DNA of 64,000 bases from Escherichia coli (GTDB lineage Bacteria; Pseudomonadota; Gammaproteobacteria; Enterobacterales; Enterobacteriaceae), in assembly GCF_024223415.1 (NCBI RefSeq), contig NZ_CP100500.1. One strand, 5' to 3'. The notes beneath the pieces are model-generated. The model saw only the letters and a program-made list of their open reading frames with translations. It made no database searches and was not told the DNA's origin. Below, piece after piece: positions 35,920-43,272 of this stretch. Numbering within the stretch: the stretch's first letter is position 1; each line of letters opens with the position of its first letter. The position numbers and the translations under genes were made by a program.

Positions 35920-36678
35920 TCAGAAAAGAGAAGATTGCTGTGGAATAGCCGGAACTGCTCCGATCTCTGGAAGCGTTTTACGTAAGTCTTCCCACAGGGT
36001 ATGTACCAGTTCCGGTGCCTGGGCAATGTCTGGCGTATGTAAAAAAAGATAAGGCGTAGTGGTCTGATGCCACTGCGCTAATTTCTGTAACCAGACCTGA
36101 AATAATTCCCGGTTTTGCGTCATATCATCACTACCGATAAAACGGATCAGCGGATTTGTCGCCGTCAGTACAGCATGTACCGGAACTTTAGGTTTTTTTC
36201 GTTGAGCGTCGCGAATAGCTTCACTGTGTGGACGTGCTGCATGAACCGGGCGGCTGTCTAAAATCACCCGATTAACGCCGCGCTGATGTAAACCGCGATT
36301 AAGCGTTTGTTCCTCTTCCCCTTTGGCGAAAAACTGTGGATGGCGGACTTCCACACCATAATTAAATTCGCCAGGGAGAGAATCGAGAAAATGCCAAAGC
36401 GCAGGCAGCTCCCGTGGGCCGAATGTGGCAGGCAGTTGCAGCCAGTATTGCCCAATGCGCGGAGCCAACGGTGACATGCGGGTCAAAAATTCAGTCACTA
36501 AATCATCGCAATGTCGTAATGCTGCCTGATGCGAAATGGTCGCCGGAAACTTAAAACAGAAGCGGAAGTCATCTGTGGTCTGTTCACGCCAGCGCAGGAC
36601 AACCTCGGGTTTCGGCAGGGCGTAAAGCGTGGTGTTGCCCTCCACGCAGTTAACATGACGGGTATTGAAGGCTAACAC
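35920..36678 (-). pseudogene. yecE: yecE (DUF72) with its native 5' end displaced by prophage integration; remaining reading frame fused to phage-derived codons MLAFNTR
   Basis: The ORF reads MLAFNTRHVNCVEGNTTLYALPKPEVVLRWREQTTDDFRFCFKF... The conserved YecE body begins at ...NCVEGNTT. The region that would encode the native N-terminus is replaced by sequence contiguous with the integrase gene. Confidence 0.65.
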
Positions 36679-37985
36679 ACTGATTTTAATAAGTTTCTTG
36701 TGTCACTTTGGTGACCATGGGACATCATTGGGACATAATCTGCCAGCTTCTGATTCAGCATTGCGATCTGTTCTGCATTACTGTCAGTCATCCATGCTCC
36801 GTATACATTGAACACCATCTGGGCACTTGCATGGCCCATCTGGCTGGCAATGAAGCTTGGGTTTGCTCCGGCAGATAATGACCAGCACGCATAAGTGTGT
36901 CGTGACTGGTATGCTTTCCGGTGCCTGATGCCCGCACGCTTAATGGCTGTTTCCCATGAGTCGCCAATAGAATCTACCTTGTAGATAAAACCGACCTGTT
37001 TGCTTTTTCTAACCACCTGGGGGTTAAATACGAAAGTACATTCATGGTTCACTGTACGTCCATATTCACGTAGTTGAACCTTGATGTGGTGCTGCTTACC
37101 CAGTCTTGTCATTTCAGCCTGATTTTTCAGGACACTGATAGCGGGCTGGATAAGATGCACAACCCTGTTTGTACTTGCTTCAGTTTTAGGTAGAGTGAAC
37201 TCACCGAGTTTCGTATAATTGCGCCTGATAGTAATTGTTCCTGCTTTCAGATCGATATCTTCCCAGGCCAGGGAGACCAGTTCACCATGACGCATTCCTG
37301 TGTACACAGCCAATGACCACAGGTTTTTCGTCTGCTGATGTCGGCAAGCATCTATCAGGCGAATAAATTCGTCACGAGTTAGCGGATCTGGCTCTGCCCT
37401 GGCTCTTTTAAGAGGCTTAATTCCCTGGAAGGGATTTGCTTCTAAGTAACCGTGATCTGCAGCAAACTGAAACATTCCAGCGATTGTCGTCATGTAATAA
37501 TTTACAGTAACGACGCTCCGTCCTTTTGCTGCTGCTTTGTTTTTCGTTGAATTCTGGTACCCGGTCAGCAAATCTTTCCTGATATACAGCAATTCCTCTT
37601 TAGTTACCGATGACACCAGTCTGCTGCCTCCAATTTTCGGAACCATCGTTCTTGCAACGGATTCATAGCGATTGAATGCATTTGCAGAGATCTCCATTCG
37701 TTTCAGATCCAGCCACTTTTCTTCAAGTTCCTTCACCGTAATTTCTTTTTTACTTACCCCAAAAGCCTGAAGGTTAGGGGAGTCAGGGAACTGTGCAGCA
37801 TAATCAAAGCTTCCTGTGCGGATGGCAAAACATACCGATGTCCGCAGTTCCCCGGCGATCTTCCTGTTCTTGGCAGTGTCAGGGACACCAAGATTTTCCC
37901 TGACACGTTTACCTTTAAAATTAAACCAGATGCGTAATGTGCCGCCGTGGTTTTCGACGCCTGTTGGATATTTGACTTTATCCAT
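36672..37985 (-). CDS. int: phage tyrosine integrase (437 aa)
   Basis: The C-terminal catalytic region contains the conserved R...HxxR...Y motifs (...RHGELVSLAWEDID...HTYACWSLSAGANPSFIASQMGHASAQMVFNVYGAW). The gene abuts the disrupted host gene. Confidence 0.9.
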   Translation of the reverse strand: MDKVKYPTGVENHGGTLRIWFNFKGKRVRENLGVPDTAKNRKIAGELRTSVCFAIRTGSFDYAAQFPDSPNLQAFGVSKKEITVKELEEKWLDLKRMEISANAFNRYESVARTMVPKIGGSRLVSSVTKEELLYIRKDLLTGYQNSTKNKAAAKGRSVVTVNYYMTTIAGMFQFAADHGYLEANPFQGIKPLKRARAEPDPLTRDEFIRLIDACRHQQTKNLWSLAVYTGMRHGELVSLAWEDIDLKAGTITIRRNYTKLGEFTLPKTEASTNRVVHLIQPAISVLKNQAEMTRLGKQHHIKVQLREYGRTVNHECTFVFNPQVVRKSKQVGFIYKVDSIGDSWETAIKRAGIRHRKAYQSRHTYACWSLSAGANPSFIASQMGHASAQMVFNVYGAWMTDSNAEQIAMLNQKLADYVPMMSHGHQSDTRNLLKSVC

Positions 37986-38040: not shown

Positions 38041-38277
38041 TCACCCAGGTTGTTTGTTTTTCATTGAAGCGACCCAGGCATCTATTGCTTTTCTGTTATA
38101 CATACATTCACTGGAAGGCTTTGGATTACCGTCTGGTGATACGTGAATATACTCTCTTCCAACCATCCAGCATTCTTTCCGGGCCCGAAGAATTGTGCCT
38201 GGTTTGAGCCCGGTAATTGCGATTAGAACGCTTTCACAAACCCATTCATTGGGAGCCAGTTGAATCACATTGCCCAT
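38041..38277 (-). CDS. xis: excisionase-like DNA-binding protein (78 aa)
   Basis: It lies immediately upstream of int on the same strand. Product MGNVIQLAPNEWVCESVLIAITGLKPGTILRARKECWMVGREYIHVSP... has an Xis/AlpA-like winged-helix pattern. Confidence 0.6.
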   Translation of the reverse strand: MGNVIQLAPNEWVCESVLIAITGLKPGTILRARKECWMVGREYIHVSPDGNPKPSSECMYNRKAIDAWVASMKNKQPG

Positions 38278-38435: not shown

Positions 38436-38678
38436 TTACTTCCTTTTCATGGCCCGTAATTTTTTCAGATGAGTTTCCTGTTCTGTTTCTGCCAGAATTT
38501 GTCGGTATTCCTGATGATCGAGCCGTTCAAACGTTTCATTAAAATCGTTTATTTTTACCGACTGTGTTCGCCCATCCATTCTTCTGTACAACACGGTGTT
38601 ATTTATGCAGCGAATAATTTTTACCGGGTAACCGGCACTGTCGGTATACAGTTGTCCCTGATTAATCAAAGCGAACAT
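38436..38678 (-). CDS. hypothetical phage protein (80 aa from the ATG at 38678 with an AGGAG RBS 7 nt upstream; ORF-track frame extends to 38801)
   Basis: Product is MFALINQGQLYTDSAGYPVKIIRCINNTVLYRRMDGRTQSVKINDFNETFERLDHQEYRQILAETEQETHLKKLRAMKRK. The RBS was checked in sequence (GCAGGAGAAAAAATG). Confidence 0.5.
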   Translation of the reverse strand: MFALINQGQLYTDSAGYPVKIIRCINNTVLYRRMDGRTQSVKINDFNETFERLDHQEYRQILAETEQETHLKKLRAMKRK

Positions 38679-38709
38679 TTTTTCTCCTGCTCTCTGAATA
38701 GTGAGAACT

Positions 38710-39075
38710 TCAGAGTCGTATGTTTGTAGCGGGTTCAATGCTGATGATTTCTGCTGAGATAAGCATCCCGGCCAGCCAGAGCTCTCCGGACAGGTTTTCA
38801 TCCTTGCATTCCAGTCCGCCGATATTAATGGTGGCTATGATATCGCGCTTATCCTCGACTTCTTCATAAGGCAGCGTTGCGTACAGGCTTTCAATAGCGC
38901 AACTGATAACATCCAGTCCGGTCAGATTGCCGCCGACAGTGACTTCGAATGTTTCGCGGTATTCCCATAGCCCGAAAGTTAATCGAACGGTTTGTTTTGC
39001 CATGCGCCCGCATGACGTCAGATTCGGGTCATAGTTCATTATTTGCGGTTGAGTATTCTGGGCGTTCATCTGCAT
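38710..39075 (-). CDS. hypothetical phage protein (121 aa from MQMNAQ...; ORF-track frame extends to 39141)
   Basis: Product is MQMNAQNTQPQIMNYDPNLTSCGRMAKQTVRLTFGLWEYRETFEVTVGGNLTGLDVISCAIESLYATLPYEEV... No recognisable motif was found. Confidence 0.45.
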   Translation of the reverse strand: MQMNAQNTQPQIMNYDPNLTSCGRMAKQTVRLTFGLWEYRETFEVTVGGNLTGLDVISCAIESLYATLPYEEVEDKRDIIATINIGGLECKDENLSGELWLAGMLISAEIISIEPATNIRL

Positions 39076-39109
39076 TTCCCTTAGCCCGGCGGCCTGCCGG
39101 GCGTATAAG

Positions 39110-39937
39110 TTATTTAACCTGGATAAATGGTGTATTAGCACCGCTGGTCATGTATTGCGGCAGTGTGCCGTTCCATTTATTGATGGCTTCCAGCTCCATA
39201 ACGCCGGGGTTCTGACGCAGAGCTTCACCGCGTAAACGAATAGCATCAGCTTCGGCCTGGGCTTTTGTGCGAATCGCATCAGCCTGTCCGGCAGCTTCTG
39301 CGCGCAACATATTGGCTTCCGCTTCGCGCTGTTTTACTTCCTGCTCGCGCTGCAGTGTTTTCTGGTTCGCCGTGACTTTGGCATTAATGCTGTCGATAAC
39401 TGTTGGCGGGTACTCCGGCTTACCCACATATGAGAGGCTCATTACCTGAATACCGATAGGTGTCATCTCTGCCTGAATGTCTTTAAGAGCTTCATCCAGC
39501 AGCTCAGACTTGCCGCCGTCGATAAATTTGTCAGTGGTCATTTTGCTGGCCAGTCGGTTGAGTGCGTCGGCGATCTTCTGGCGCAGGTCAGTGTCGGTAA
39601 TGTCATCCACGCCTTTGCGGTAGGTCTGAAACACCGTGGTAACTTTGGATGGATCAACTTTGTAGGCCACGCCAATGTGATAGCCGATGGTTGTACCGTC
39701 ACTCATCTGGAAACTGAACGGTTCATCGTAGGTCTTCATTTGTTTGAAGGTGGGGAAGATATAAACTTCAGTATTCCAGCCAGTCCAGTAGCGACCAACA
39801 CCGACCACCTCACCGACGCCTTTGTCGTCGCCCAGTTTATTTACCTTGATGCCAACATTACCTGGTTCAACGCGATCGCAACCGACAAGGCCAATAGTCG
39901 GCAGAACAATGGCTAAAGCAAAAATAATTTTTTTCAT
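39110..39937 (-). CDS. SPFH/band-7 (stomatin/prohibitin/HflKC-like) lipoprotein, 275 aa
   Basis: Product is MKKIIFALAIVLPTIGLVGC (lipobox) followed by an SPFH-like core and a coiled-coil tail QREQEVKQREAEANMLRAEAAGQADAIRTKAQAEADAIRLRGEALRQNPG typical of HflK/HflC/QmcA. Confidence 0.6.
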   Translation of the reverse strand: MKKIIFALAIVLPTIGLVGCDRVEPGNVGIKVNKLGDDKGVGEVVGVGRYWTGWNTEVYIFPTFKQMKTYDEPFSFQMSDGTTIGYHIGVAYKVDPSKVTTVFQTYRKGVDDITDTDLRQKIADALNRLASKMTTDKFIDGGKSELLDEALKDIQAEMTPIGIQVMSLSYVGKPEYPPTVIDSINAKVTANQKTLQREQEVKQREAEANMLRAEAAGQADAIRTKAQAEADAIRLRGEALRQNPGVMELEAINKWNGTLPQYMTSGANTPFIQVK

Positions 39938-40122
39938 CTTTTATCCTTAGTGAAAGAAAGACCCTTGTAAATGGCATAAATGCAGGGCGGGGTCAGAAAC
40001 GCCAGTGCAAAGCCAGAAATAACTGCTATCGTATCCTTCATGGATATAAGGAACGGAACGAGTAATCCGTAAATGCATGCGATAATTGCCAGTAAAATTA
40101 CTATTGTGAAATACAGTCTCAT
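39934..40122 (-). CDS. small two-TM membrane protein (62 aa), translationally coupled to the SPFH gene (NfeD-like partner position)
   Basis: Product is MRLYFTIVILLAIIACIYGLLVPFLISMKDTIAVISGFALAFLTPPCIYAIYKGLSFTKDKR. It overlaps the SPFH start by 4 bp. Confidence 0.5.
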   Translation of the reverse strand: MRLYFTIVILLAIIACIYGLLVPFLISMKDTIAVISGFALAFLTPPCIYAIYKGLSFTKDKR

Positions 40123-40145: not shown

Positions 40146-40253
40146 TTAACCGACTGACAGCGCAATAAAGAGAATAATGATTTCTGTTAGTGTCAGCACT
40201 GTGGCAAGGATTAAAATCAGTTTTACTCTGTTTAATTCACGGTTGCTTTTCAT
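40146..40253 (-). CDS. 35-aa hydrophobic peptide (possible small membrane-toxin-like protein), not in ORF track
   Basis: Hand translation gives MKSNRELNRVKLILILATVLTLTEIIILFIALSVG followed by TAA. It has a single predicted TM helix and a short polar N-terminus. Confidence 0.3.
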   Translation of the reverse strand: MKSNRELNRVKLILILATVLTLTEIIILFIALSVG

Positions 40254-40298: not shown

Positions 40299-40880
40299 TT
40301 AATGTGTCACTGGCGCTTCTGGCATACCATGAGTATTCAGGTCGTGAATCATTTCATCCAGAAGGAGTTCAAGCCCTTCGCGCCCCATAGCAGAGAGAAT
40401 GAAACCATTATCAGGATCTGCGATGAGCATTTTTTGATAGAGAAACAGAACTCGCCCCATGCCTTCAGTTTCGCCATATTTTTCAATAAATCCCCATTCG
40501 ACATGGTTTTGCAGGGCAATGCGAAGTGGTCCTGGGTATATACTTATGCAACCATGTTTCCCCTTGTAAATAACTGCGCGATCTGTCGTCCCGTTATCGT
40601 TAGGGATATCAATAGTGCCGTTCTTGTCTTCCTCTTCACTGATAAACTTCATCACATACAGCCAGCGCCACTGAGCAACCTTCAGATCGACTGAAAATCT
40701 TCCCAGCAATCCGGCATCATCAGCTTCGGCAAGACATTGCATGATTCTTAAACCGTGCCAGTATGGATTATCGAATTCGCCATCATTAAGCCGCTGTACG
40801 GCCTGAATATAATCAATGGTTGTATTACCAATTTTTATGCCATGTGGCGTTACTTCTGGTCGGAACTCTGAATGATTCAT
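40299..40880 (-). CDS. hypothetical protein (193 aa from the ATG at 40880; ORF-track frame extends to 40937)
   Basis: Product is MNHSEFRPEVTPHGIKIGNTTIDYIQAVQRLNDGEFDNPYWHGLRIMQCLAEADDAGLLGRFSVDLKVAQWRWLYVMKF... The start overlaps the stop of the upstream 67-aa ORF as ATGA. Confidence 0.55.
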   Translation of the reverse strand: MNHSEFRPEVTPHGIKIGNTTIDYIQAVQRLNDGEFDNPYWHGLRIMQCLAEADDAGLLGRFSVDLKVAQWRWLYVMKFISEEEDKNGTIDIPNDNGTTDRAVIYKGKHGCISIYPGPLRIALQNHVEWGFIEKYGETEGMGRVLFLYQKMLIADPDNGFILSAMGREGLELLLDEMIHDLNTHGMPEAPVTH

Positions 40881-41261: not shown

Positions 41262-41627
41262 TTATTGCGCTAATTCTTTTTCGGCAGCAGATTTTGCATA
41301 TTCACATGCAAAATTCAGAATTTCGCTGCCAAGTGTTTTTGTTTCGTGATTACTGGACATATGTAATACCTGTGTTGCATGCAATAAATGATAAACATTT
41401 ACCGCAAATGAGTCCGGCTCCAGACAAATGCCTTCATAATCATCTTGTTGTGAGGTTGTTTCTGTCATTGCTCCTGAAGTGCATGCGAGCCTGTTTTTGA
41501 CAATTCTCTTTCCTCTAATCACTATATCGGCAACATCTATTGCCTTTACAACCTCCGGGAGAAGTTCCGGGTTTGTATAATCAAAGTCATCAACATGGAG
41601 AACAGTTATGTTTTCGAACTTTTTCAT
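41262..41627 (-). CDS. hypothetical protein (121 aa); C-terminal ~57 aa paralogous to N-terminus of the adjacent 182-aa HTH protein
   Basis: Product is MKKFENITVLHVDDFDYTNPELLPEVVKAIDVADIVIRGKRIVKNRLACTSGAMTE...GICLEPDSFAVNVYHLLHATQVLHMSSNHETKTLGSEILNFACEYAKSAAEKELAQ. Confidence 0.5.
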   Translation of the reverse strand: MKKFENITVLHVDDFDYTNPELLPEVVKAIDVADIVIRGKRIVKNRLACTSGAMTETTSQQDDYEGICLEPDSFAVNVYHLLHATQVLHMSSNHETKTLGSEILNFACEYAKSAAEKELAQ

Positions 41628-41755: not shown

Positions 41756-42304
41756 TCACCATTGGTATTGGTTCTTCCGTAGAAGAGCTTCGCGAGATAA
41801 GGAGCAAACTTGTTGAGATGCGTCATGGTGTTGCTGCTCCTCACTTTTTGGTTGCTCCGGAGGAGTAACCTCGCCAGTTAACAGCCACATCGGATCGCAG
41901 CCAAGAATATTTGCCAGTGGGGTAAGCATACTGATAGTTGGTTCATACTCTCCGCTCTCCCACTGGATGATGATTTCTTCATCGAGATCGAGCAGCCTGG
42001 CGAGTTCGGCGGTTGTTAAGCCGCAGGCTTCGCGTTGGGTGCGAAGGTTAACCAGCCAGCTTTTAGGGAAGGATTGTTTTTGTTGTGCAGGAGAAGCCGT
42101 AGATAGAGCATATTCATGGATAAATTCCATTACCTCAATGCCCAGTTCCTTTGAGCGAGCACAATCCAGAAGATGGAATGTGCGTACAGCACTTAGCAAA
42201 TTTGCAATATTTAATGCAAAGGAATCAAGTTCTAAGCCTTCAAGCGTAACACAGCCGCAGTTGATAAAATTAGTTGTTTCTGGAGTTGCTTTTAGTGTCT
42301 TCAT
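41756..42304 (-). CDS. XRE-family helix-turn-helix protein (182 aa) with an N-terminal domain of unknown function; first gene downstream of cI on the same strand
   Basis: An HTH_XRE signature LRTQREACGLTTAELARLLDLDEEIIIQWESGEYEPTISMLTPLANILGCDPMWLL sits in the C-terminal half. The N-terminal region VTLEGLELDSFALNIANLLSAVRTFHLLDCARSKELGIEVMEFIHEYALSTAS aligns with the C-terminus of the 121-aa neighbour. Confidence 0.55.
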   Translation of the reverse strand: MKTLKATPETTNFINCGCVTLEGLELDSFALNIANLLSAVRTFHLLDCARSKELGIEVMEFIHEYALSTASPAQQKQSFPKSWLVNLRTQREACGLTTAELARLLDLDEEIIIQWESGEYEPTISMLTPLANILGCDPMWLLTGEVTPPEQPKSEEQQHHDASQQVCSLSREALLRKNQYQW

Positions 42305-42449
42305 ATACCCACCAACAATTTTAAATTGAATTTAATCAAGTTATAATTGATGGTGCGATATTATGCTTTGAGAAATAGGCTGTCAAGAAAAAATTGATAC
42401 CGTGTGTTTTAGGCAGAAAAAAACGGGCAAAGCCCGTTAAAATCAAAGA

Positions 42450-43145
42450 CTAACCAAATCTGTTTATATTGAATGGTACTGATGAGATCACTTTAGACTG
42501 GATATAAAGCAGAGCTAACCCCTCTTTTTCGATGCTCCATGGTTGATAATTGGGGTTATCAGATAACACCATGATTTTGCTTCCAATTTTTTGAAGTCTT
42601 TTCACGTAGCATTCTCCATCAAAACAAAATGCATAAATGCCATCGCCATCAAAATAAGTTACTGTCTTATCAAGAAAAAGAAGGTCGCCAGGTGAGATTG
42701 TGGGAGCCATACTGTCTCCTCTGGCGTTACCTATTTCTATATTTTTGAATGCCCGATTTCCAACAAGGCGTCGGGCATATTCAGGATCAAGTTCTATTGA
42801 GCGCACTACATCTATCAAGTCACCACGGACATGAGTTCCATCACCGCAACTAAACTCAACATCAAGGACATTAAACACGACGCTATCTGTTCTTGTCTGG
42901 TGTTTCTCTTGCGAGGAAAAGGTTGGTGAGGAGTCTTCACCTAAGAACCAGGATTGTGGATAACCGCTAATCTCGGATAAATGCGCGAGCTTATCACTCC
43001 GTGGAAATGTTTTTCCTGTTGTCCAGTACTGCACTGATTGCGCACTCACACCTAACTTGCGGGCCAGTTGAGCCTGAGTCCATCCTTTTGCTTTCAGCAT
43101 CGCGGCTATTCGATTTTCCGTGTTTTTGACGTTCTTCATGACCAA
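42450..43145 (-). CDS. cI: CI-type prophage repressor (N-terminal HTH, C-terminal LexA/S24 self-cleaving peptidase domain), 231 aa
   Basis: The HTH is WTQAQLARKLGVSAQSVQYWTTGKTFP. The S24 domain has the catalytic Ser in GDSMAPTI and Lys in YVKRLQK. The gene is divergent from a cro-like gene. Confidence 0.85.
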   Translation of the reverse strand: MVMKNVKNTENRIAAMLKAKGWTQAQLARKLGVSAQSVQYWTTGKTFPRSDKLAHLSEISGYPQSWFLGEDSSPTFSSQEKHQTRTDSVVFNVLDVEFSCGDGTHVRGDLIDVVRSIELDPEYARRLVGNRAFKNIEIGNARGDSMAPTISPGDLLFLDKTVTYFDGDGIYAFCFDGECYVKRLQKIGSKIMVLSDNPNYQPWSIEKEGLALLYIQSKVISSVPFNINRFG

Positions 43146-43272
43146 ATCCTGTGGGTTTCTTTACAAGGATAAATCTTTACTTGATTTTAGTGTATTCGAT
43201 CCTTTTGCAACTTGCATGTTAATTTAAACTTGATGTATTCTTGATTCATAAAGTTAATGTTGGTGCTTTGTT
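43146..43272. promoter_or_regulatory. immunity-region operator/promoter interval (OR-like) between divergent cI and cro
   Basis: The 127-bp AT-rich divergent intergenic interval contains three CTTGAT repeats (43180, 43229, 43240) and the palindrome TGCAA-C-TTGCA (43207..43217). Confidence 0.5.

Follow-up and report, generated by a model that had tools for sequence, protein, structure and literature searches.

Here we describe a gene pair carried by a prophage of Escherichia coli, located at positions 39110–40122 of a 64,000-nucleotide (nt) stretch of contig NZ_CP100500.1 (assembly GCF_024223415.1; hereafter the window). Both genes are on the minus strand. The downstream gene (39110–39937), delimited using the open reading frame (ORF) list, Pfam, PHROG and tblastn, encodes a 275-residue lipoprotein with an SPFH (Band-7) domain. 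The upstream gene (39934–40122), recognized from the ORF list, its hydrophobic segments and PHROG 1130, encodes a 62-residue protein with two transmembrane (TM) segments (hereafter the partner). At their junction, which reads AAGGATAAAAGATGAAAAAA on the minus strand, the TGA stop codon of the partner gene overlaps the ATG of the SPFH gene by 4 nt (ATGA, 39934–39937), an arrangement consistent with translational coupling, and an AAGGA Shine–Dalgarno sequence is located 7 nt 5′ of that ATG. Overlap or near-abutment of the two genes is also found in phages P88, MY01, S6, D14B, LG08 and E174 and in most IMG/VR loci. Neither ORF of the pair is a chance ORF.

The prophage is integrated at yecE of the E. 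coli chromosome and encodes an integrase (36672–37985) and a DUF1233 excisionase (38041–38277). The segment 38700–40300 is 97% identical in nucleotide sequence to the Stx2e (Shiga toxin 2e) phage phiP27 and several Stx2a and Stx2d phages match it at approximately 93% identity. By tblastn, the 275-residue protein is 100% identical to phiP27 L05 (P27p05), and phiP27 shares both the int–xis–...–L05 gene order and the yecE integration site. The pair is thus an object already catalogued and common: there is no substantive difference from L05 and from PHROG families 200 and 1130, except that the partner is unannotated in the phiP27 record (NC_003356, 3307–3492, minus strand). L05 itself bears three labels: the GenBank entry names it a ‘putative serine protease’, RefSeq a ‘lipoprotein’ and PGAP an ‘SPFH domain-containing protein’. 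The first of these has spread through the Stx2 phage records LC5678xx. Neither PHROG 200 nor PHROG 1130 has an experimentally assigned function. An initial annotation, made from the sequence without database searches, had noted no characterized lambdoid gene of this type; this holds for function, as none has been assigned by experiment, and fails for the gene itself, which is a common annotated one (phiP27 L05, PHROG 200).

An SPFH protein predicted to be exported and lipid-anchored

The Pfam Band_7 profile (PF01145) matches the 275-residue protein with an E-value of 3e-31 (109.2 bits, cut-off 23.6) over residues 22–208 (39314–39874), the alignment spanning profile positions 2–176 of 176, and the domain is recovered by AlphaFold2 and Foldseek (see below). 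PHROG 200 (‘lipoprotein’) also matches, with an E-value of 3e-114. The N-terminus, MKKIIFALAIVLPTIGLVGC, fits the PROSITE PS51257-type pattern: residues 1–20 (39878–39937), which read MKK...IVLPTIGLVGC, comprise a basic n-region, a hydrophobic h-region and an L-V-G-C lipobox (defined here as [LVI][ASTVI][GAS]C with the cysteine at position 15–35), and Cys20 is followed by Asp-Arg. C20, D21 and R22 are almost invariant among close enterobacterial homologues. A lipobox is present in 12 of 13 Gram-negative phage homologues and, using a strict regular expression, in 25 of 32 IMG/VR cluster representatives, whereas Gram-positive phage homologues have an uncleaved N-terminal TM helix instead. Because either a lipobox or an N-terminal TM helix is present, the SPFH domain is predicted to be extracytoplasmic across all sampled bacterial-phage homologues. 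An aspartate at position +2 after the lipid-modified cysteine is the inner-membrane retention signal of enterobacteria. With this residue nearly invariant in the enterobacterial subgroup, the mature lipoprotein is predicted to be retained at the inner membrane via Asp21.

Following the SPFH domain, the composition changes sharply: alanine, glutamate, glutamine and arginine make up 60% of residues 186–243, against 15% of residues 21–185. An AlphaFold2 model (17-sequence alignment, mean predicted local distance difference test score (pLDDT) 79) comprises the SPFH core, a single long helix (residues 178–242, 39212–39406; also delineated by composition and by alignment to HflK and prohibitin-2) and a tail (residues 245–275). 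The pLDDT is 81–95 across the SPFH domain and below 50 in the tail; in this monomer model, the low confidence is compatible with a segment that would fold only in an oligomer. The tail (39113–39211) bears the motif A-I-N-K-W-N-G-x-L-P ... P-F-I, conserved over 16 distant phage homologues as A-[IV]-E-K-W-[DN]-G-x-L-P ... P-F, with W255, G257 and P260 invariant or nearly so, and corresponds to a fragment family of its own, PHROG 38808.

When searched against the PDB with Foldseek, the model matches all of the cage-forming SPFH families (erlin1/2, HflK/C, prohibitin, stomatin, flotillin, QmcA–YbbJ and major vault protein) with a probability of 1.00, the first six with E-values of 1e-13 to 1e-8; erlin, HflK/C and prohibitin are marginally first (E ~1e-13). 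These scores do not separate the SPFH subfamilies, and thus the assignment can be no finer than ‘HflK/prohibitin/erlin-like’. In a sequence search of the PDB, the best matches are HflK (E 4e-4) and prohibitin-2 (E 5e-3), with alignments that take in the coiled coil. The NCBIfam HflC/HflK models (TIGR01933, TIGR01932, NF008181 and NF008259), however, score only 18.5–25.9 bits against cut-offs of 134–660, so the protein is not an HflK/C orthologue. The initial annotation, which had described a prophage-encoded 275-residue lipoprotein with an SPFH core, an HflK/HflC-like coiled-coil tail and a start overlapping the stop of a 62-residue two-TM gene, is borne out in all of these structural points.

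Compared with its solved relatives, the protein thus combines familiar and distinct features. Like HflK/HflC (PDB 7vhp, 7wi3 and 9cz2), it would place an SPFH domain and a long coiled coil in the periplasm, the topology here being a prediction; unlike them, it has a predicted lipid anchor, is encoded by one gene, carries the distinct KWNGxLP motif and has its own two-TM partner. Its gene is flanked by those of the 62-residue hairpin protein and of a DUF5406 protein, with no tandem SPFH paralogue. Prohibitin PHB1/2 and erlin1/2 provide the best fold matches and likewise have a non-cytoplasmic SPFH domain, and prohibitin-2 aligns to the coiled coil and tail; these are, however, eukaryotic organelle proteins with TM anchors, and sequence identity is 14–18%. 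Some homologues have been named ‘prohibitin family protein’ or ‘SPFH_prohibitin’ (PMC10269572).

A conserved two-TM partner

The 62-residue partner is composed of two hydrophobic segments (residues 1–30 and 31–52) separated by a short loop, the segments taking up approximately 50 of its 62 residues, and is matched by PHROG 1130 (‘membrane protein’; E 2.5e-23). Its loop, P-F-L-I-S-M-K-D-T, is neutral in charge and its C-terminus has a net charge of +3. By the positive-inside rule, both termini are therefore predicted to be cytoplasmic (N-in/C-in) and the conserved loop periplasmic, which is where the exported SPFH domain would sit.

The gene order had been likened initially to that of SPFH–NfeD operons (QmcA–YbbJ, PDB 8z5g; Pyrococcus PH1511–PH1510). 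The likeness holds in part: in both, an operon joins an SPFH gene to one for a small membrane protein, and QmcA is among the fold matches (E 1e-8). The partner, however, is not an NfeD protein, because it matches neither PF01957 (NfeD) nor any other Pfam family at E ≤ 0.1, and because 62 residues, almost all of them TM helix, leave no room for an OB-fold domain of ~90 residues. The SPFH protein here is moreover predicted to be exported, unlike QmcA and the flotillins, the SPFH domains of which face the cytoplasm.

We examined conservation of the partner in a first sample of 13 Gram-negative phage lineages taken at even steps down the SPFH hit list. In 12 of these, a small two-TM ORF (three TM segments in Ccr10) lies directly upstream of the SPFH gene on the same strand, usually with overlapping stop and start codons; the exception is phiEa104. 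These partners are only 5–38% identical to that in the window, and have in common a loop motif, P-x-[LMF]-[IVF]-S-x-x-[DNS]; the loop between the helices is the only conserved polar element of the partner. A hidden Markov model (HMM) built from this sample was then run on two independent samples. Among 80 diverged IMG/VR loci, obtained with a diverged alignment as query (a scan seeded with the window protein itself had returned 80 loci that were all at least 93% identical to the query), the HMM found exactly one match among ~26 plus-strand ORFs in 73. With the SPFH proteins of these loci clustered at 80% identity, the stop codon of the partner lies between −90 and +60 nt from the SPFH start in 28 of the 32 clusters. 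Among 55 bacterial loci (4,095 ORFs, both strands), the HMM gave one match in 51, in every case sharing the strand of the SPFH gene and lying upstream of it, immediately so in all but two.

The partner is under-annotated beyond phiP27: in the P1-like record MH422554, the corresponding 78-residue ORF (4775–5011, minus strand) is also unannotated. Its architecture, two TM segments and a basic C-terminus, is holin-like; no holin family of Pfam or PHROG matches it, and no lysis cassette lies nearby in the window.

A more distant counterpart is found in Kayvirus (the Staphylococcus phage K/G1 group), where the SPFH protein of the MbpV–MbpS pair is approximately 25% identical (E 3e-7) and a small membrane-protein gene abuts its start. 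In the Kayvirus pair, the SPFH protein has a TM anchor instead of a lipobox, its partner combines a single TM helix with a long charged tail, and both genes map to the lysis region; the carrier is a strictly lytic phage of Gram-positive bacteria. MbpV and MbpS have been suggested to help in the Sec-dependent export of the lytic enzyme Tgl (PMC7150955).

Operon context and distribution

Every gene between a cI-like repressor gene (42450–43145) and int, both included, lies on the minus strand. Immediately past the repressor gene, a terminator-like hairpin (42422–42438, minus strand) would separate the immunity transcript from a leftward early operon, which would start from a PL-like promoter (TTGACA-17-TAATAT, 42386–42358, minus strand), the best promoter-like site of the region in our scan. 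The pair lies ~2.2 kb downstream of this promoter, and no further minus-strand terminator-like site was found between the promoter and int. The promoter is flanked by operator-like sites of the form ATCAAG-N5-ATTGAT, one exact (42335–42351) and one with a single mismatch (42382–42398), and related sites are present in the cI–cro intergenic region (43169–43185 and 43218–43234), a layout that resembles OL/PL and OR of lambda. Window-wide, the operator pattern occurs at the frequency expected by chance (9 found, 7.7 expected); four operator-like sites are clustered in ~180 nt around the repressor gene, and this clustering of the best matches is the only informative part. The pair is thus most likely in a repressor-controlled early-left operon, with repressor control deduced from consensus matches only, and is probably expressed after induction or infection and not in stable lysogeny.

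Related elements are similarly placed elsewhere. In a Klebsiella lambdoid prophage, the pair is embedded between the repressor gene and int, among consecutive genes whose stop and start codons overlap; in the P2-like phage P88, it is in the early operon between cox and a replication gene; and in P1-like variants, it lies between dmt and ban, a stretch that in canonical P1 is the C1-controlled ban operon. Given this early-operon context here and in the Klebsiella, P2-like and P1-like phages, the earlier placement of the pair in a lysogenic cassette is wrong. The P1 gene plp was considered as a homologue and rejected, as canonical P1 plp encodes an unrelated protein of 125 residues and the SPFH gene is found only in P1-like variants.

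The SPFH gene appears mosaic in relation to these phages. Only the part encoding the mature domain (39143–39889) is shared with P88 and P1-like phages, at 85–91% nucleotide identity, whereas both the signal peptide and the partner gene are divergent (20–27% identity for the partner), and the GC content of the SPFH gene is 0.50–0.54 compared with 0.39–0.46 in its flanks. Together, the local similarity, the diverged partner and the higher GC content suggest mosaic exchange within the module.

Related DNA was detected in 569 of 5,426 complete E. coli genomes, and the whole pair in 214, at 417 chromosomal and 239 plasmid places; among the matches listed, the plasmids are mostly ~90–110 kb, the size of P1-like phage-plasmids. 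Protein relatives are present in 737 of 50,697 phage records, of which 683 span at least 80% of the query. The carriers include temperate phages (lambdoid, P2-like (P88) and P1-like) as well as Staphylococcus Kayvirus, Enterococcus Brockvirinae, N4-like Schitoviridae, rV5-like Vequintavirinae and FelixO1-like Ounavirinae, all of which are strictly lytic. Further matches are in Bruynoghevirus, phiCbK-like and crAss-like phages, Lak megaphages and haloarchaeal tailed viruses. The pair also occurs in ~16 Dyella species and one Rhodanobacteraceae genome, in a locus whose flanks are conserved over more than 6 kb; in Dyella halodurans, it (2738–3870 of the locus) adjoins a hemerythrin-domain gene and an nrdB-type ribonucleotide reductase gene. 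This locus looks chromosomal rather than prophage-borne, which suggests a cell-autonomous membrane function. A scan of bacterial genomes with a single peptide pattern returned no Pasteurella locus.

The remaining genes around the pair are as follows. A candidate third small ORF, of 35 residues with one TM helix (40146–40253, minus strand), was identified in the ORF list 23 nt upstream of the partner gene; its membership of the module is uncertain. It is intact in phiP27 and in two further phiP27-like prophages with few amino acid changes, too few to judge selection, and it has no Shine–Dalgarno sequence, no Pfam or PHROG match and no RefSeq annotation. Between the SPFH gene and xis, DUF5406 (38710–39141) and DUF4222 (38436–38801) proteins are encoded on the minus strand by ORFs that, as called, start upstream of the RefSeq starts. 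The first genes of the leftward operon encode an HTH_3 protein (41756–42304, minus strand), which matches PHROG 4836 (‘CII-like regulator’) with an E-value of 1.5e-77, and a 121-residue protein of PHROG 5451 (41262–41627, minus strand); the two have a short segment of similarity in common, which shows up as weak reciprocal PHROG cross-matches. Membership of a known anti-phage defence system was considered and rejected: PADLOC-DB v2, searched with the SPFH protein, the partner and four neighbouring proteins, gave no match at E ≤ 0.1.

Possible functions of the module

The organization described above suggests a membrane module in which an SPFH scaffold holds a small client, and we regard the chances as evenly balanced that the pair is such a module, made in lytic development, with an SPFH ring or cage holding the two-TM partner. 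The 275-residue protein would be exported, lipid-modified at Cys20 and kept on the periplasmic face of the inner membrane. By analogy with HflK/C, prohibitin and erlin, it would form a ring or cage around a patch of inner membrane, assembling through the long helix and the C-terminal tail, and the partner would be a client or a membrane-embedded subunit, held by the cage through its periplasmic loop. Synthesis of both proteins would probably follow induction or infection and be absent from stable lysogeny. Their effect would be to control the organization or integrity of the inner membrane, or the turnover of membrane proteins, during lytic development, with FtsH as a candidate target, as for HflK/C. 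A general membrane effect of this kind is favoured because the module is found in lytic phages, in temperate phages and on a bacterial chromosome; a lambda-style lysogeny switch or a lysogenic-conversion function is less likely, as are superinfection exclusion, a role in lysis timing and host-directed virulence.

Several points weigh against this scaffold–client reading. Oligomerization, partner contact and membrane localization are features that we infer, and a monomer model says nothing about a cage. In homologues from other hosts, the residue after the lipobox cysteine varies (Ser, Ala, Glu, Tyr, Asn or Gly), so that inner-membrane retention cannot be generalized to the whole family. The partners are only 20–38% identical between phages whose mature SPFH proteins are 92–93% identical, which would be odd for a tight complex unless the loop motif suffices for contact or the SPFH part has been exchanged recently. 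As to expression, promoter and terminator matches in the region are no more numerous than in shuffled sequence, and an internal promoter may be active in lysogens; a weak promoter-like site lies at 40310–40283, upstream of the 35-residue ORF, again with scan counts at the level of shuffled sequence. Finally, in the literature searched we found no experiment on any close homologue, and a search joining PAK_P3 with SPFH, made for the expression timing of a lytic-phage homologue, returned no match.

One alternative is that the phage protein mimics or competes with HflKC, binding or caging FtsH from the periplasm, altering the degradation of CII/CIII-like proteins and thereby biasing the choice between lysis and lysogeny. 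The other known outward-facing SPFH cages regulate membrane-protein degradation, HflK/C and prohibitin with AAA proteases and erlin with the ubiquitin-ligase machinery of endoplasmic-reticulum-associated degradation. HflK is also the nearest solved relative in sequence, HflK/C–FtsH structures are among the top fold matches, the predicted topology agrees, in that the SPFH domain lies on the non-cytoplasmic side, and the leftward operon encodes the HTH protein that matches the ‘CII-like regulator’ family. An HflKC-like role in FtsH control and lysogeny has been speculated upon for a Pseudomonas satellite prophage (PMC4936722), for Burkholderia phage CSP3 (PMC10269572) and for Bruynoghevirus, in the last case with the remark that obligately lytic phages carry an SPFH gene (PMC8540360). 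That remark agrees with our finding that the family is common in obligately lytic phages, which counts against the idea. So do the NCBIfam HflC/HflK scores (23–26 bits against cut-offs of 134–159), the presence of one SPFH gene in place of a K/C pair and the replacement of the TM helix by a lipid anchor. The family is also present in haloarchaeal viruses, the hosts of which are not known to have FtsH, and the same pair forms a chromosomal operon in Dyella. A gene of the early lytic operon could still affect CII, and modulation of FtsH in general is possible; given the strictly lytic carriers and the Dyella operon, the lysis–lysogeny-specific role proposed in the initial annotation is unlikely as a general function, and we consider the HflKC mimic as a whole improbable. 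A doubtful prospect, too, is superinfection exclusion, in which the lipoprotein and its partner would block entry of an incoming genome at the inner membrane, in the manner of T4 Imm/Sp or of Ltp from Streptococcus phage TP-J34. Precedents exist for lipoprotein-based exclusion, small membrane proteins encoded in the early regions of lytic and temperate phages would suit such a role, and the category of PHROG 1130 is ‘moron, auxiliary metabolic gene and host takeover’. However, there is no PADLOC match, exclusion genes are usually lineage-specific whereas this family spans Proteobacteria, Bacteroidota, Firmicutes and archaeal viruses, the chromosomal copy conserved in Dyella points to a membrane function that serves the cell itself, and a lysogen in which the genes are repressed, as predicted, would go unprotected.

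Lysis timing would require the partner to act as a holin or pinholin, with the SPFH cage restraining or localizing it, or other phage membrane proteins, until the right time. The partner does resemble a class-II holin (~60–80 residues, two TM segments, basic C-terminus), and the distantly homologous Kayvirus pair mbpV–mbpS is located between lysK and tgl, with MbpV described as holin-like (PMC7150955). Yet the pair lies in early or nucleotide-metabolism regions here and in N4-like, rV5-like, P1-like and P2-like phages, the partner matches no Pfam holin family, and the Kayvirus partner, with its single TM helix, shows no detectable homology to that in the window, which leaves this role with little likelihood. 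More remote still is lysogenic conversion, whereby the lipoprotein would be made in the lysogen, released in outer-membrane vesicles and act on an animal host. The module is present in Stx phages of pathogenic E. coli, and there is a parallel in PM0222, an HflK/C-like protein of similar size (25–35 kDa) from a lambda-like prophage of Pasteurella multocida, which is reported to occur in vesicles and to be an agonist of Toll-like receptor (TLR) 1/2, and the deletion of which is reported to attenuate virulence, in a study centred on these properties and not on phage or membrane biology (PMC9872710). The likeness to PM0222 is taken from its published description; Asp at +2 predicts retention at the inner membrane, the gene is in a putatively repressed early operon and the family is widespread in lytic phages of non-pathogens. 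Activation of TLR2 is in any case a generic property of bacterial lipoproteins. The serine protease annotated in the phiP27 GenBank entry and in Stx2 and other phage records has database labels alone in its favour, and the label has been taken as a possible virulence trait in Stx2a phages (PMC8456039). No protease domain was found in Pfam, NCBIfam or PHROGs apart from a marginal match (E 6e-4) to a PHROG ‘protease’ family over the coiled coil, and the entire fold is accounted for by SPFH domain and helix. With these domain and fold results, the protease reading is effectively refuted. Presumably, the label derives from the old name of COG0330, ‘membrane protease subunits, stomatin/prohibitin homologs’.

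A bolder form of the scaffold–client reading, to which we give appreciably less credence, is that the pair represents an undescribed pan-phage extracytoplasmic SPFH cage, also chromosomal in some bacteria, that takes over a universal inner-membrane process early in infection, with the partner docking through its loop. On this tentative reading, the cage might sequester or re-target FtsH-type quality control, or insulate the membrane against premature depolarization or incoming phage DNA. To an object already on record, our analysis usefully adds two points that we did not find described in the literature searched: the partner is conserved yet under-annotated, and the SPFH domain is consistently predicted to be extracytoplasmic.

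In practical terms, a wrong ‘serine protease’ label stands in Stx-phage records and the partner gene is missing from several reference annotations. Should the module only fine-tune membrane homeostasis, it would be an ordinary accessory gene. The cellular roles of most bacterial SPFH proteins are unclear; they are ancient membrane scaffolds for which cages have been shown only recently. A lipid-anchored SPFH protein of ~30 kDa with a 60-residue cognate, present in hundreds of phages, including therapeutic Kayviruses and Stx-converting phages, could provide a tractable minimal model for client selection by SPFH cages, and could lead to a membrane process of the host over which many unrelated phages must gain control.

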